Assembly (NCBI GenBank): GCA_016197005.1
Contig: JACPWO010000002.1
Coordinates: 146,178-210,177, forward strand
Direction of reading: 5' to 3'
DNA: 64,000 nt
Source of the DNA: Candidatus Anderseniibacteriota bacterium
GTDB taxonomy: Bacteria > Patescibacteriota > Andersenbacteria > UBA10190
Made by a program: the position numbers and the translations under genes. Every line of letters starts with the position of its first letter. The first letter of the stretch is position 1. The notes under the pieces are model-generated. The model saw only the letters and a list, made by a program, of their open reading frames with translations. It had not been told where the DNA came from and ran no database searches. Shown here in pieces: positions 2,703 to 57,923 of this stretch.

Positions 2703-3430
2703 AAGCAGTAAGTACACTTCGTAAATCTAACGTGAAGGTTCTTATTCTCGGTTGTTTATTCTTGGTGGCCTTAGCCGCGCTGCAACCGTATGTATGGCGG
2801 CTCGTGAGTGCGACTTCTCGCTTAGTAGAAGAGCGTCGGGCGGCGGTTTTACAGCTCAACAATATTCAGACAATTGTTGCTGACTTAGAGCAAGTTGAGC
2901 AATCGGCTGAGGCGACATCAGCGCAGCTTTCTCAAGTACTCATTAGTGAAGATGAAGTAACGCAAGCAGTAGAACGACTAGAACGAGAAGCAGACAAGCG
3001 TGGGTTACAACTGAAGGTAGAAAATATTCAGCGAGTCACGAACCAGGCGAGCGATATTAATTTAACTCAGTTGGTAGTAACCATTACGGCTTTTGGAGCG
3101 GCAGATAAGTTATTTGAATATATTGATGCCGTTGAGCATTTCCCGGAAATTATGTTTACGCGGGATTTTGTCTTGCGCCAAGCACCTGCTCGTTCGAAGG
3201 ATGGCGCAGTAGTCCATGCACTTAACATGAATGCCGTCTTTTATATGAATACTCCAGCAACGGTTGCGACTGAAGGTGATTCTACTCAAAATCGTGGTGC
3301 TCCCACTGATCTTGGTGGCGTTTCTCCGCGTGATGCGCTTTATTGGAGTAGTGTCGGAATTGTCGGCATCGGCGGTGTCTTGCTGCTAGGTGGAATAATC
3401 ATGATGATTAAGCGTAGAACACTTATTTAA
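2699..3430 (+). CDS. PilN/PilO-like pilus assembly membrane protein
   Basis: ATGA overlap with pilM. N-terminal TM, long coiled-coil. C-terminal second TM. Confidence 0.5.
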   Translation: MKAVSTLRKSNVKVLILGCLFLVALAALQPYVWRLVSATSRLVEERRAAVLQLNNIQTIVADLEQVEQSAEATSAQLSQVLISEDEVTQAVERLEREADKRGLQLKVENIQRVTNQASDINLTQLVVTITAFGAADKLFEYIDAVEHFPEIMFTRDFVLRQAPARSKDGAVVHALNMNAVFYMNTPATVATEGDSTQNRGAPTDLGGVSPRDALYWSSVGIVGIGGVLLLGGIIMMIKRRTLI

Positions 3431-3433
3431 TCT

Positions 3434-3808
3434 ATGGCTTCTTTCAAAAAACAAGGATTGCAGCAAGTAGGAGGTCGTGTTGGCCGGCGGGTGGCTAAAT
3501 TTATAGCTGGTCGAACAATGTTTTTGTTATTACTTTTAGCCAGCGTGACGTTAAGTGGAATTTTTGTGTGGCAGCGAGCGGTTAGCTCGCTCCTTGAAGA
3601 ACCTATCATACCAGCTGATCAGGTAGCAGCTACTGTCCAGCTTAGTACGCAAGAACTACAGTCCATCATTGAACGCCGGGCGCAGCGTATTAACTTTACT
3701 CCTCGCTCGTTTGCTCGATTTAACCGCCTGTTTCCAGGTACCGCTGCTTCACCTTCAACTTCACCGATACCCTCTCCTTCCCCAACAGTCAGTCCTGCGG
3801 CAGGATAA
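3434..3808 (+). CDS. pilus-cluster membrane protein with Pro/Thr/Ser-rich C-terminus (hypothetical)
   Basis: Single TM (MFLLLLLASVTLSGIFVW) followed by a PT-rich tail TAASPSTSPIPSPSPTVSPAAG. Confidence 0.4.
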   Translation: MASFKKQGLQQVGGRVGRRVAKFIAGRTMFLLLLLASVTLSGIFVWQRAVSSLLEEPIIPADQVAATVQLSTQELQSIIERRAQRINFTPRSFARFNRLFPGTAASPSTSPIPSPSPTVSPAAG

Positions 3809-4244: not shown

Positions 4245-4796
4245 ATGCGGGAAATAAATCTCCTTCCCACCCCTCGCCGCACTTTTCTGCGTCGACAGTG
4301 GATATATGACTCACTGCGGCGTTTTGTGTTTAACATAAATGTCGCTCTGATTATTATGACGGCGGTAGCGCTTGCTACGTTGGCCGGGTTACGTAGCGTT
4401 TCTTTCTTTACCTCAGCTGATGCGGAATCTACTATTCCTGAATATCTAGGAAAGTATCAAGCCACTAAACAAGCAATTGAAGAAAAGAATCGGCTCATTG
4501 CTCAGGCTAGCGCGGCCGACCAAGGTCGAATCATTTGGGGGGATTATATAACCGAGCTTTTAAATGTACTACCGCCCGGCACTCTTGTTGAACGTATTAC
4601 GGCTGATGCGGACCAGGAAGAAATAATGGTCACTGGAGATACGGTAAACCGCAGCTCCTTAACGCTACTGGATGCCCGTATTAAAAGTTTATCGTGGGCG
4701 AAAGAAGTACGTGCGCCACTTACAAACTTACTTGATCGCGAAAACCCAGAGTTTTCCTTCACCATTATTCTGAATAGGAACGCAGCAGAGCCGTAA
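4245..4796 (+). CDS. PilN-like fimbrial assembly membrane protein (third copy)
   Basis: MREINLLPTPRR is a PilN-type N-terminus. Single TM follows. Confidence 0.5.
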   Translation: MREINLLPTPRRTFLRRQWIYDSLRRFVFNINVALIIMTAVALATLAGLRSVSFFTSADAESTIPEYLGKYQATKQAIEEKNRLIAQASAADQGRIIWGDYITELLNVLPPGTLVERITADADQEEIMVTGDTVNRSSLTLLDARIKSLSWAKEVRAPLTNLLDRENPEFSFTIILNRNAAEP

Positions 4797-4859: not shown

Positions 4860-4956
4860 GGGGACGTAGCTCAGTGGGAGAGCGTCAGAGTATTGCTCGT
4901 CTCGCGAGGGGCAATTACAACTCTGAAGGTCGAAGGTTCAAGTCCTTCCGTCTCCA
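4860..4956 (+). tRNA. tRNA-Val-like gene with a roughly 25-nt hairpin insertion in the anticodon arm (anticodon most plausibly UAC; ACA is also possible depending on boundaries)
   Basis: Acceptor GGGGACG/CGTCTCC with discriminator A. D-arm GCTC-AGTGGGA-GAGC. Anticodon stem TCAGA/TCTGA. Variable loop AGGTC. T-arm GAAGG-TTCAAGT-CCTTC. The anticodon loop region is 32 nt instead of 7 and contains the hairpin ATTGC-TCG-tctcg-CGA-GGG-GCAAT immediately 5' of TTACAAC. No CCA encoded. Confidence 0.6.
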
Positions 4957-4960
4957 TTTC

Positions 4961-4983
4961 GCACCCGCTTTGGGTGCTTTTTG
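4961..4983 (+). terminator. rho-independent terminator after the tRNA
   Basis: GCACCC-gcttt-GGGTGC hairpin followed by TTTTTG. Confidence 0.6.
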
Positions 4984-4996
4984 TTATACTCATTCT

Positions 4997-15227: not shown

Positions 15228-15626
15228 TGGTGGACACGGCGGGAATTGAACCCGCGTCTGAAACGCGATTACTCAATCTTCTACGCGCGTAGCTGTTCTA
15301 GTGATACTCACCGCAAAGCAGCAGAACAGCAAAGCCTTTGTTGTGAGTGAGATAGTGCAAGTCAACTAATACGTATCTCAGCCGTATCAGTTCAATCCGT
15401 CTAGGTTGACACCGTGATAGTGCGCGACGGATCGCACCAGACGATGGCTATAGGTTTTAAGCTACAGCGAACGCGAACGAAGGGGTGAGTGCAGATGCAA
15501 TCGCCGTCTTCGCGCGGTTAAACAAGTTTGCACGTGACTTGATGAGCTACTGGTATTTACGAGTGTATAACTCTTCACTCGGCGCGCTGATTGTGTAAAA
15601 AACATTCCATCGAAGCCTGTCATGCC
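15228..15626 (-). ncRNA. ssrA: tmRNA (transfer-messenger RNA)
   Basis: The 3' end reads GCGGGTTCAATTCCCGCCGTGTCCACCA, a tRNA-like T-arm plus acceptor and CCA. The 5' end GGGCATGACAGGCTTCGATGG resembles the conserved tmRNA 5' end and can pair with the 3' acceptor strand. An internal in-frame tag reading ends ...PSFAFAVA followed by TAA. Lies adjacent to smpB. Confidence 0.8.
15230..15244. repeat. direct repeat GTGGACACGGCGGGA at the tmRNA 3' terminus (proximal attachment-site-like)
   Basis: Identical to 13877..13891. Confidence 0.7.
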
Positions 15627-15677
15627 CAGTACCTATTTGAATTGCTTCCAATAGTTGTGGGGCAGCCCACACTTCTT

Positions 15678-55913: not shown

Positions 55914-56711
55914 ATGGAATTTACAAAGGAACTTAAGAAGTTAGGTTTGAAGGACAAAGAAGCGGCTGTGTATTTGGGTTGCTTAGAGCTAGGTTCAGCT
56001 ACCGCCCAGCAAATTAGCAGGAAAGCTCATGTAGTGCGAGCTACTACGTATGTAGAACTAGAATCTTTGATGCAAATGGGATTAGTGACAAAGTTCAAGC
56101 AAGGAAAGAAAACACTTTTTTCAGCAGAGCCACCACGACAGCTTACTCGACTTCTTGAGAAGCAAGAAGAAAGTATAAAAGAAAAGAAGGAAGGGCTAAA
56201 TCATCTGTTGCCAGAACTCCAGATACTTATGAAAACTGGAGGGGGTAAGCCATCAGTTCGTTATTTCGAAGGTAAGGAGGGATTGCATGCAATACGACAA
56301 GAAATTGTTATGCACACGCAACCGGGGCATACAGTTTATAATTTTACGCCCATTGATTACTTGAATGCAGTATTTCCAGAAAATGAAACCGTGTATTACA
56401 AACAACGATCGGCAAAAGGAATAAAGGCAAAAACCATTTTTACTACGAAGTCACCTACTGTTCGGGATAGAGTGTTTGCAGAGCTATATCAGCAACAAAC
56501 AGAAAAACGCTTCGTTAAGCCTGAAGATTTTCCGAGTACGAGCGGAATGACTATTTATGAAGATAGGATCGCGATAGGGTCGTTTACGGGTGACCTAATG
56601 GGGGTTGTCATAGAAAGTGAGCAGATGACAGATATGATGGTGCGACTCTTTGAGTTAGCGTGGATTACTGCGTTTACAGAAAAAGACTATAGAAAGAAGG
56701 TAAAAGGTTGA
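55914..56711 (+). CDS. TrmB-family transcriptional regulator
   Basis: N-terminal winged helix LGLKDKEAAVYLGCLELGSATAQQISRKAHVVRATTYVELESLMQMGLV. C-terminal effector domain. Confidence 0.6.
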   Translation: MEFTKELKKLGLKDKEAAVYLGCLELGSATAQQISRKAHVVRATTYVELESLMQMGLVTKFKQGKKTLFSAEPPRQLTRLLEKQEESIKEKKEGLNHLLPELQILMKTGGGKPSVRYFEGKEGLHAIRQEIVMHTQPGHTVYNFTPIDYLNAVFPENETVYYKQRSAKGIKAKTIFTTKSPTVRDRVFAELYQQQTEKRFVKPEDFPSTSGMTIYEDRIAIGSFTGDLMGVVIESEQMTDMMVRLFELAWITAFTEKDYRKKVKG

Positions 56712-56736
56712 CTTTTATCTTTCTCTTTTCATAATA
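56708..56736 (+). promoter_or_regulatory. sigma70-like promoter TTGACT-17 nt-ATAATA
   Basis: Near-consensus -35/-10 with 17-nt spacer overlapping the trmB-like stop codon. No protein gene follows for roughly 700 nt. Confidence 0.4.
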
Positions 56737-56743
56737 GAAGCAG

Positions 56744-57249
56744 CTGAGGTGCGTTGCCTTAGCAGTGTCATGGATGGTCACCGCATCCTCTTACCTCGAA
56801 GGAGGTGTTCTATGGGTGGTTACCCAATGGACTAACGAGGATGGAGCGACCAAGAGAGTAGCGCCAGAAAGGCTCTCGACATGCATAGGAAAAGGTTGAG
56901 TCTGGCGTTAGTACGGCCGGCACTTGGTTTCTGAGCTTCAATTCAGATACTAAGTTTCAAGCCCGGCTATGAAACGAAACGGTTCTTTGCAACCGAGAAT
57001 ATAAATGGAAGGTCGTGCAATGTTGACAGGCCTTGTCGATATTGCCTCCGTCCGGACCCATCCCCCGATCCCACCTGATACCAATCGCCATTAGTGCGAA
57101 TCATGGGTCGTGGTGGATGGGTCTTCGTACACTTGAGTTACTGTCAAGTTTGCAGAAGGGCGTCCACCTCTGAACATGGATTCCTTTTAGCGCAAACTTG
57201 TCAGGGCCCGGTTCTTCTTTCGAGAAGTCCCGGGCTTCTTTCTTTTATT
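56744..57249 (+). ncRNA. candidate roughly 500-nt structured non-coding RNA of unknown class
   Basis: Bracketed by the promoter at 56708 and a strong intrinsic terminator at 57204..57249. G+C-rich with many local hairpins (GGATG..CATCC, CCTC..GGAGG, GGACCCATCC...GGATGGGTC). No ORF longer than 61 aa. Confidence 0.35.
57204..57249 (+). terminator. rho-independent terminator
   Basis: GCCCGG-tCTTC-tttcga-GAAG-tc-CCGGGC extended hairpin followed by TTCTTTCTTTTATT. Confidence 0.55.
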
Positions 57250-57276
57250 GACACCCAAATATACCGGCGGTACAGT
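57248..57276 (+). promoter_or_regulatory. sigma70-like promoter TTGACA-17 nt-TACAGT
   Basis: Consensus -35 and good -10 with 17-nt spacer. Lies roughly 150 nt upstream of pth. Confidence 0.45.
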
Positions 57277-57388
57277 TAAATGTTCCTTCGCCTATATCAT
57301 CCCGCTTTCGACGCACCTAGATTGAGGTTAGCCCCTCCTATACCTCAGGTGGGTGTCGTTCGAAAGGGGGGTAATGTAGACGAAACTA

Positions 57389-57412
57389 AACTCCGCAGTG
57401 CGGAGTTTTTTG
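57389..57412 (+). terminator. rho-independent terminator immediately upstream of the pth RBS (leader or attenuator terminator)
   Basis: ACTCCGC-agt-GCGGAGT hairpin followed by TTTTTTG. Only 14 nt from the pth start codon. Confidence 0.55.
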
Positions 57413-57425
57413 GTAGGATGATTCT

Positions 57426-57923
57426 ATGATTAAGCTTGTTGTTGGACTGGGAAATCCAGGCGCGAAATTTGAACGAACCCGACACAATATCGGAGTTCGG
57501 GTAGTAGAAGCTTGGGCGAAGGGTCCGGGCGCATCTATGCGCACACTGTATCTCCTTCCGGCAGACTTTATGAATAATTCCGGAAAGGTAGTAGCGGCGG
57601 CAATGAAAAAACATCAAGTGAAAATGGAAGAGCTTTTACTTGTGCACGATGATTTAGAAACATCATTTGGAGAAGTACGAATAAAAGAAATAGGAAGTGC
57701 TAAGGGCCACAATGGCGTGCGATCAATTCACGAAATGCTTGGCACGCAAGAAATCCGTCGTCTCATGGTAGGAGTAAGTCGCCCGCCGGCAGAAATTCCT
57801 GCCGATAGATATGTTCTATCTAAATTTAATTCTGAAGAAGAAACACTCCTTGCGGAAAAAGTTATTCCAGAAGCTGTCCAAAAAATTCAAATTATTCTTA
57901 CTCCGCGTCCGCTCCCAGAATAA
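57426..57923 (+). CDS. pth: peptidyl-tRNA hydrolase
   Basis: MIKLVVGLGNPGAKFERTRHNIG canonical Pth start. Confidence 0.9.
   Translation: MIKLVVGLGNPGAKFERTRHNIGVRVVEAWAKGPGASMRTLYLLPADFMNNSGKVVAAAMKKHQVKMEELLLVHDDLETSFGEVRIKEIGSAKGHNGVRSIHEMLGTQEIRRLMVGVSRPPAEIPADRYVLSKFNSEEETLLAEKVIPEAVQKIQIILTPRPLPE

Follow-up and report, generated by a model that had tools for sequence, protein, structure and literature searches.

Two conserved structured RNA units between a TrmB-family regulator gene and pth in Andersenbacteria

What occupies the 714-nt gap that separates the gene for a TrmB-family helix-turn-helix (HTH) transcription regulator from the gene for peptidyl-tRNA hydrolase (pth) in an Andersenbacteria genome? 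The gap lies at positions 56712-57425 of a 64,000-nt stretch of a Candidatus Anderseniibacteriota contig (the window, whose coordinates are used throughout), and the initial annotation had read it as a structured RNA of roughly 500 nt followed by a leader-like RNA before pth. Comparison with related loci shows that the gap holds two conserved and structured units, here called unit 1 and unit 2, both of which are absent from Rfam and look like new RNA families. We put at about one in two the probability that these are two separate non-coding units on the + strand, that pth follows them with a probable leaderless promoter of its own, and that the core of unit 1 is a module made of a Shine-Dalgarno (SD) site and a mini-open reading frame (mini-ORF). 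On this view unit 1 would be a regulatory RNA tied to translation, with unit 2 as a small RNA or leader next to it. The elements that delimit the two units are the following:

56708..56735, + strand: promoter P1 of unit 1, TTGACT-16-CATAAT, 10/12 matches, overlapping the stop codon of the regulator gene
56737..57249, + strand: unit 1, a structured RNA of ~510 nt, with ends predicted from promoter and terminator
57204..57249, + strand: terminator T1 of unit 1, stem GGGCCCGG...CCGGGCUU followed by a U-tract
57248..57276, + strand: promoter P2 of unit 2, TTGACA-17-TACAGT, 10/12 matches
~57283-57411, + strand: unit 2, a predicted RNA of ~130 nt
57391..57411, + strand: terminator T2, CUCCGC-AGU-GCGGAG followed by UUUUUU

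Relatives of the locus were found by looking for homologues of the two flanking proteins, Pth and the regulator, on other contigs. Divergence among these lineages is deep, with ~37-58% identity between their Pth proteins and 63-81% between their regulators, the most divergent regulators being those of L004 and L005 (53-62% identity). The distance from regulator to pth in each is as follows:

L003: gap of 720 nt
L058: gap of 726 nt
L059: gap of 765 nt
L060: gap of 749 nt
L061: gap of 745 nt
L062-L066: gap of 872 nt
L067: gap of 486 nt
L057: same start as the others; the contig ends 542 nt past the regulator, at P2
L004: gap of 131 nt (2870-3000), with nothing at the unit 1 site
L005: a 264-aa methyltransferase-like ORF (1430-2224; PF05175, weak) at the unit 1 site, then 188 nt

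Unit 1, unit 2 and pth follow one another in the same order in all eight lineages in which the full gap can be read. The gap has a G+C content of 0.48-0.51, compared with 0.38-0.43 in the upstream regulator gene, and holds no protein-coding ORF, as first proposed: the longest frame is at most 61 aa, and no translation in any of the six frames is conserved among the homologous gaps.

The two sigma70-type promoters and two terminators of the initial annotation are found in their places by consensus scan, by inspection of the sequence and in the folds. A lone match of this kind is not above chance (5 found in the scan against 4.0 expected), and the promoters and terminators are convincing because they recur at the same places in relatives. 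An equivalent of P1 (TTGACA/TTGACT-N16-17-TAnnnT) opens the gap in L003, L059, L061, L058 and L062, while P2 is conserved in L003, L057 and L005. A GC-rich stem followed by UUCUUUU, resembling T1, stands 494-553 nt past the regulator stop codon in seven of eight lineages; in L060, the exception, the tract reads UCUUUUUU and is located at 510 nt. T1 was also found in L067. The U-tract of T1 runs straight into the -35 box of P2 (UUCUUUUAUUGACA, window 57236-57253), and this junction of terminator and promoter is kept in L003, L057, L059 and L067.

The fold of unit 1 (56737-57250) has a predicted free energy of -213 kcal/mol, with a z-score of -7.5 on the + strand compared with -4.3 on the - strand, and its homologues in L003, L057 and L058 reach z-scores of -4.6, -4.6 and -6.7. 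Unit 1 is found in nine Andersenbacteria lineages (the window, L003, L057-L062 and L067) and measures 470-527 nt in eight of them, referred to below as the eight long lineages, and ~290 nt in L067. The window and L003 share ~65% identity over the whole of unit 1, within which some blocks are 100% identical: CGCCAGAA.AGGC.CUCGACAUG, GUUGAGUCUGGCGUU, and CGGUUCUUUG..GAAUAUA..GAAGGUCGUG. For a test of covariation, the minimum free energy (MFE) structure of the window was projected onto a sequence-only alignment with L003 and L057. In this projection 71.7% of cells pair, compared with 38-47% when the partners are slid, and 36 pairs are changed on both sides, compared with 9-21 in the slid controls and with no match among 500 shuffles (0/500). 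This pair count is conservative because the MAFFT alignment contains register errors, for example at the 3' strand of hairpin H4 in L057, which is one column off. When these three sequences are aligned with structure taken into account, 133 consensus pairs result, of which 32 are invariant, 29 show compensatory change and 17 differ on one side. The comparative alignment that had been suggested as a check on the first proposal therefore displays conservation and covariation in relatives, and the claim of a structured RNA of ~500 nt is borne out. A structure-aware alignment of all eight long RNAs was too noisy to yield a consensus fold, and only the window, L003 and L057 align throughout.

As judged from these alignments and folds, the body of unit 1 is a chain of about ten predicted hairpins whose sequence diverges fast while its pairing is kept. 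Three of them illustrate this behavior:

56859..56910, + strand: hairpin H4, with a 10-bp outer helix, an internal loop AAGGCU on the 5' side, a 6-bp inner helix and a 14-nt loop
56980..57018, + strand: hairpin H6, CGGUU-CUUUGC-AACCG with the conserved junction GAAUAUAAAUGGAAGGUCGUG, a block that is the same in the window and L003
57054..57123, + strand: hairpin H8, long and C-rich/G-rich with a small inner hairpin, and with compensatory changes in L003 and L057

The outer helix of H4 covaries across lineages, from GCGCCAGA/UCUGGCGU in the window to CCGUGAG/CUCGCGG in L057, GCACGUGA/UCACGUGU in L058, GCACGUGG/CCACGUGU in L060, GCGCGAGA/UCUCGCGU in L061 and GCGUGA/UCACGC in L062. The L057 counterpart of H6 is CGGCGC-UCUUUG-GUGCCG followed by AAUAUA, with the loop sequence CUUUG retained. 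After the inner hairpin of H8, UAAAG is present in five other lineages. A motif of the form (C/A)AUGGA(U/A)(G/U) occurs three times in unit 1, as CAUGGAUGG at 56769-56777, AAUGGAAGG at 57005-57013 and CAUGGAUUC at 57175-57183; of these, the first (CAUGGAAGG) is also kept by L003, L057 and L062, and L067 has CAUGGAAG.

Unit 2 contains a single long hairpin, found upstream of pth in every lineage examined (11/11):

57291..57380, + strand: unit 2 hairpin, ~90-95 nt, apical loop UUAGCCCCUCCUAUA, with an invariant CCCCUCC at 57332-57338

Its fold has a z-score of -6.2. In a MAFFT alignment of ten lineages (alignment A5; L067 lies outside it and has the hairpin too), RNAalifold finds 24 consensus pairs, 16 of them with compensatory changes. 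The fraction of cells that pair is 91.1%, compared with 77% in shuffles and 40-64% with slid partners, and the covariation score is 0.506 against 0.266, a value matched by none of 500 shuffles (0/500). The loop sequence CCCCUCC is invariant within the alignment, where its consensus is RCCCCUCCUA, and the loop nonamer has a single occurrence in the 64-kb window.

These data bear on whether the gap could be a decaying gene or a neutral spacer whose features arose by chance. Such a history would fit L005, where a methyltransferase-like ORF stands in for unit 1, and L004, which has hardly any gap, but we consider it extremely improbable. Unit 1 has no similarity to the L005 ORF and no conserved translation, and we rejected the idea of a decayed gene on those grounds; in addition, promoter, terminator, size and fold stability recur at a Pth identity of ~40%, and both units covary. 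That L004 and L005 keep unit 2 and pth, with other content or none at the unit 1 site, indicates that unit 1 was gained or lost relative to them. Genomes of the Candidate Phyla Radiation (CPR) are tiny, yet ~650 nt are kept here for two RNAs beside the enzyme that recycles peptidyl-tRNA, which implies a real function.

Could unit 1 be a known housekeeping RNA? At gathering scores, Rfam 15 finds only a transfer-messenger RNA (tmRNA) at 15228-15627 and two tRNAs in the whole window. A search of the 1.1 kb at 56500-57600 against 4227 families gave no match to unit 1 at E<=10, and the L003, L004, L005, L057 and L058 loci gave none at E<=1. RNase P, SRP, 6S, OLE, ROOL, GOLLD, raiA, HEARO and riboswitch families are all without a match in the gap. 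A known housekeeping RNA that would fully explain unit 1 had been named as the outcome that would reduce it to an ordinary gene, and the Rfam run offers none. A very divergent RNase P, 6S, large SRP or second tmRNA that the Rfam models miss would account for the strong promoter and terminator, the conserved place among housekeeping genes and a size near those of RNase P and tmRNA. Furthermore, CAUGGAAGGUCC, present in L057, the window and L003, loosely resembles the CR-I sequence of RNase P, GGAAAGUCC. However, we regard this explanation as very improbable. The CR-I-like motif pairs locally, where it closes a three-way junction, and not with a 3' CR-V partner, it is absent in L058-L061, and GGAGG is the only internal sequence common to all eight long RNAs, unlike the pattern of catalytic RNAs. 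The search for RNase P RNA (RF00010/RF00011) was negative. For tmRNA (RF00023), unit 1 likewise gave no match, and it has an intrinsic terminator at its end and an ORF with an SD site and AUG, both of which the tag ORF of a tmRNA lacks. The tmRNA at 15228-15627 is normal, which means that trans-translation in this genome already has its RNA outside the gap. A literature search covering structured RNAs of CPR/Patescibacteria, RNase P, pth leaders and minigenes, and SD or leaderless usage turned up nothing relevant.

What, then, is kept in unit 1 when most of its sequence is not? Among the eight long RNAs, the only position-conserved 5-mers are GGAGG (RNA position 52-113) and the U-tract of the terminator. 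The GGAGG is the 3' half of a hairpin stem with CCUC on its 5' side, and an AUG stands 5-8 nt downstream of the GGAGG, opening a short ORF that the initial annotation had overlooked:

56793..56806, + strand: hairpin H2 of the MFE structure, anti-SD CCUC paired with the SD sequence GGAGG (56801-56805)
56812..56835, + strand: mini-ORF AUG GGU GGU UAC CCA AUG GAC UAA (MGGYPMD*), within hairpin H3

Each unit 1 RNA has exactly one AUG with a strong SD site, at RNA position 65-89, in all eight lineages. Its predicted duplex with the 16S rRNA 3' end ranges from -8.0 to -13.5 kcal/mol, and the other AUGs in these RNAs are weaker than -7. For the 45 ORF starts of the window, the median duplex is -0.5 kcal/mol, with two of the 45 at -8 or better and none reaching -10; the unit 1 site of the window, at -13.5 kcal/mol, is therefore the strongest SD of those measured. 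The mini-ORF has 3-9 codons in all eight long lineages, with these predicted peptides:

window: MGGYPMD
L003: MGGSPAE
L057: MSS
L058: MGHST
L059: MGLDPMRS
L060: MGLLLTTL
L061: MGNSPLHGG
L062: MGTDYS

The mini-ORF lies within the next hairpin (H3) in the window, L003, L057 and L059, and in the window its stop codon falls 1 nt short of the stem that closes a three-way junction. As in leader-peptide attenuators, the RNA thus contains a short ORF preceded by a ribosome-binding site in 8/8 long lineages, the case of L067 being ambiguous, and an SD site followed by a few codons is also the sequence hallmark of minigenes of the lambda bar type. A loose regular expression for the signature anti-SD..SD..ATG proved too unspecific to be useful.

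These elements could also be conserved for reasons other than translation. If unit 1 is untranslated, GGAGG/CCUC and AUGGG would be structural or binding elements only, in a protein scaffold, in a sponge for the 30S subunit or for a C-rich small RNA, of which unit 2 is an example, or in a 5' stabilizer of the STAB-SD kind. The SD site is base-paired in the predicted structures, the peptides are not conserved past Met-Gly and SD-led initiation is rare in the genome, all of which would fit. The loop sequence CCCCUCC of unit 2 is moreover complementary to GGAGG(G), with its best duplex on the SD site in four of seven lineages. In contrast, the canonical spacing of the AUG (5-8 nt) with an in-frame stop within nine codons in 8/8 lineages would be left unexplained, the rough chance of eight such stops being (1-(61/64)^9)^8, or ~2e-4. 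Between the window and L003, four of the eight codons (stop included) differ at the third base only, with two changes synonymous, one Asp/Glu and one stop-to-stop. We therefore regard an untranslated unit 1 as doubtful, while giving it serious weight.

The nature of unit 2 is a separate question. It had been suggested that the second half of the gap has the promoter-aptamer-terminator-RBS (ribosome-binding site) layout of a riboswitch, attenuator or leader RNA. Promoter, structure, terminator and gene do follow in this order in the window, L003, L058, L059, L061 and L062, and the structured domain is strongly supported by covariation. The remainder of the layout did not hold up. The domain is a rod-like single hairpin with a 13-nt loop and without the junction or pocket of a junction-type aptamer, pth has no RBS ahead of it (SD duplex -5.5 kcal/mol), and no pth in any lineage has an SD sequence that could be sequestered. 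No conserved expression platform was found either: a T2-like hairpin is present in 6/11 lineages (the window, L003, L058, L059, L061 and L062), absent in L004, L005, L006 and L067, and ambiguous in L060. Nor does the loop show consistent complementarity to the pth start region. The 13-codon mini-ORF first reported here, MFLRLYHPAFDAP, has no stop after codon 13; its frame runs on for 49 codons (57280-57429), and its ATG is missing in L003, the closest relative. A match of unit 2 to Phe_leader (RF01859), the best of the region at E<=10, would favor attenuation, but at 35.1 bits it falls below the gathering score of 55, and we rejected it since the overlapping 49-codon ORF is not Phe-rich and is not conserved. 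Taken together, a metabolite riboswitch or classical pth attenuator is quite unlikely.

How pth itself is expressed is relevant to both units. A candidate promoter abuts the gene:

57411..57419, + strand: candidate promoter P3, TGgTAGGAT, whose -10 box ends 6 nt before the pth ATG

A TAnnnT -10 box (cAcuaT in L060) is found 6-7 nt before the pth ATG in ten lineages. Such a box ends 5-8 nt (mostly 6) before the start at 13 of the 45 ORFs of the window, compared with 5% of random positions, which points to widespread leaderless mRNAs in this genome, as far as start-site sequences can tell. A -10 box just before the ATG, together with the lack of an RBS, indicates that the pth mRNA is probably leaderless and made from its own promoter. 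If pth is leaderless, unit 2 need not be its leader and may stand apart as a small RNA of ~130 nt, or it may be a leader on some pth transcripts where T2 is missing. The TAGGAT variant of the box recurs before the ORFs at 4245, 12110 and 57426.

Alternatively, units 1 and 2 could be one long regulated leader of pth, with transcription from P1 attenuated at T1 and T2 and the mini-ORF as its leader peptide; a ribosome that stalls there, or drop-off of peptidyl-tRNA, would signal low Pth activity or an antibiotic that induces drop-off, and would lead to read-through into pth. On the strand of pth, the short SD-led ORF does precede both terminators and the gene, short ORFs are a classical source of Pth substrate, and the order of the elements is fixed in eight lineages. 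However, ~370 nt separate the mini-ORF from T1, and beside T1 no alternative antiterminator was seen, no search for alternative pairings having been made. P2, a conserved consensus promoter, follows immediately after T1, a -10 box of its own precedes the pth ATG by 6-7 nt, and L004, L005 and L006 hold pth and unit 2 without unit 1. A single long leader thus appears unlikely.

We return to the explanation that we favor, in which unit 1 is an independent RNA gene that runs from a consensus sigma-70 promoter to an intrinsic terminator. The functional core of unit 1 would be a translation-initiation module 65-89 nt from the 5' end, in which GGAGG is locked by the CCUC anti-SD, the AUG follows 5-8 nt on, and an ORF of 3-9 codons in the next hairpin ends right at the closing stem of a three-way junction. 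In its likeliest mode of action, binding of a 30S subunit or translation of the mini-ORF would remodel or stabilize what would be an abundant RNA, and unit 1 might in this way report on, or regulate, the state of translation. Unit 2 would be transcribed from its own promoter, with transcription ending ahead of pth in most of the lineages that share unit 1, and would most likely act through pairing or protein binding at its anti-SD-like C-rich loop CCCCUCC. Translation of the mini-ORF, the status of unit 2 as an RNA of its own and a functional tie between pth and either RNA are inferred from these data. Very short ORFs are a classical source of the peptidyl-tRNA that Pth recycles, as known from lambda bar minigenes and pth(ts) mutants. 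The link to pth is attractive because very short ORFs yield peptidyl-tRNA and because the order of the units is fixed.

Several observations weigh against this explanation. The link to pth is speculative because L004, L005 and L006 have unit 2 and pth without unit 1 at this locus. L057 is only weakly alignable in unit 1, and beyond the window, L003 and L057 no sequence can be aligned. A 5'-domain covariance model trained on the window and L003 finds only those two sequences significant; with filters off, L057, L061 and L062 appear at exactly the expected coordinates, at 5.8-7.3 bits, which is noise level. Because alignment and model fail, homology across the nine lineages rests on synteny, size, polarity and shared motifs. 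The SD/mini-ORF pattern was spotted in, and then counted on, the same eight sequences. L067, the only out-of-sample lineage, gives ambiguous support: its unit 1 of ~290 nt has an SD site of -8.1 kcal/mol and a 3-codon ORF, and shares the promoter, the T1/P2 junction and the CAUGGAAG and UAAAG motifs. The GGAGG/CCUC element may be kept merely as a stable G-C hairpin. For the unit 2 loop, the unit 1 SD ranks first among predicted pairing sites in no more than 4/7 lineages, and P3 has no recognizable -35 box. Transcript ends and translation of the mini-ORF are both predicted from sequence.

A more specific version of the mechanism can be formulated from the same features. Unit 1 could be a minigene sensor of translation quality, in which the occluded SD site and the ORF of 3-9 codons lead to quick termination or drop-off that remodels the RNA and, together with unit 2, tunes pth expression or ribosome availability, in an organism whose other mRNAs are mostly translated without an SD or a leader. 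Although we hold this version improbable, it would, if true, establish a new class of regulatory RNAs that are read by ribosomes and confined to one candidate-phylum lineage.

Comparison with known systems helps to place unit 1. Like the leader-peptide attenuators (ermC/ermB, cat/cmlA, pheL, trpL and hisL), it has a structured short ORF with an RBS, 5' of terminators and of a gene on the same strand. In leader-peptide attenuators it is the act of translation that matters, not the peptide. Unlike in these systems, the unit 1 ORF is shorter (3-9 codons) and ~370 nt from the next terminator, with no antiterminator pairing seen and none searched for; unit 1 has its own terminator with a new promoter after it, and the downstream gene is apparently leaderless. 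Rfam leader families give unit 1 no match either, the 35-bit Phe_leader match falling on unit 2. The minigenes of lambda bar, which consist of an SD site and an ORF of 2-6 codons, share with unit 1 the strong SD and the very short ORF. When minigenes are expressed, peptidyl-tRNA builds up in the cell, with toxic effects if Pth is scarce; the connection to Pth is conceptual, and here pth adjoins. In contrast to unit 1, however, bar minigenes are short phage elements that do not lie within a 0.5-kb structured chromosomal RNA. The SD site of unit 1 also differs from theirs in being occluded by an anti-SD, and drop-off or a pth response at this locus is conjectural.

RNAIII of Staphylococcus aureus is an RNA of 514 nt with ~14 hairpins that encodes delta-haemolysin and uses C-rich loops to pair with SD sequences. 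Unit 1 resembles it as a stand-alone RNA of ~0.5 kb with many hairpins and a small ORF, and the C-rich loop of unit 2 resembles the SD-binding seed loops. The two differ in that there is no similarity of sequence or model, an ORF as short and variable as that of unit 1 could hardly encode a functional peptide, a second RNA (unit 2) bears the C-rich loop, and the host rarely uses SD sites. OLE, ROOL, GOLLD, raiA and HEARO are, like unit 1, large, structured and apparently non-coding RNAs found by comparative analysis without an assigned biochemical function. However, those families have extensive invariant nucleotides and are in Rfam, whereas unit 1 matches none of them, has almost only GGAGG invariant, and has so far been seen only in Andersenbacteria. 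ROSE and fourU thermometers and STAB-SD elements are similar in that GGAGG lies near the 5' end, here paired with CCUC, so that conditional ribosome binding or protection from 5' decay would be possible. In those systems the site serves a real downstream protein gene; the SD of unit 1 serves only an ORF of 3-9 codons, after which the RNA terminates. Unit 1 has no close analogue as a stand-alone RNA of 0.5 kb in which an occluded SD with a mini-ORF is the only invariant internal element.

New large structured bacterial RNAs are rare, and tmRNA, OLE, ROOL and GOLLD each opened a line of research. The two units offer RNA databases two new covariance-supported families, and the locus provides a testable hypothesis of a non-coding RNA linked to the ribosome and to peptidyl-tRNA homeostasis. 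It also points to leaderless, SD-poor gene expression in Andersenbacteria, and it is in such an SD-poor genome that an RNA with an occluded SD (unit 1) stands beside a small RNA that carries an invariant anti-SD-like loop (unit 2). The known distribution is narrow, at nine to eleven metagenomic lineages, with all of the evidence coming from sequence. A pattern from the best-conserved block of unit 1, TTCTTTG..GAATATA..GAAGG, had 0 matches in a genome contig collection that excludes the window's own genome, and the 49 matches of a relaxed pattern in metagenome contigs were all due to chance, having nothing else in common with unit 1. A genome scan anchored on the regulator protein led to only one distant and uninformative locus.

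The genes that flank the gap are these:

55914..56711, + strand: TrmB-family HTH transcription regulator gene (PF01978), 5' of the gap and at the same place in all related loci, with homologues of 55-81% identity
57426..57923, + strand: pth, peptidyl-tRNA hydrolase (PF01195), 3' of the gap

The first of these had been called trmB; the PF01978 assignment makes it a transcription regulator of the TrmB family and not the tRNA methyltransferase TrmB. The Pth product is 100% identical to an NCBI protein from Candidatus Andersenbacteria, a CPR bacterium. The local gene order is mfd (-), regulator (+), gap, pth (+), a LytR-family gene (-), a signal peptidase gene and hisS. In L067, an ORF of 100 aa without a Pfam match is annotated at 3138-3440 (-), antisense to the 3' end of the regulator and the start of unit 1, and is probably a spurious call over an RNA gene.

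Two further RNA genes of the window were uncalled by ARAGORN. The tmRNA gene at 15228-15627 (-) is canonical and scores 121.9 bits with the Rfam model. A tRNA match at 4860-4956 (+), with 59 bits, carries 32 nt in place of the 7-nt anticodon loop, ...GCGTCAGA[GTATTGCTCGTCTCGCGAGGGGCAATTACAAC]TCTGAAGG..., and this insert folds into its own hairpin, with a terminator-like hairpin following at ~4963-4985. Bacterial tRNAs seldom carry a short insert of this intron-like kind.

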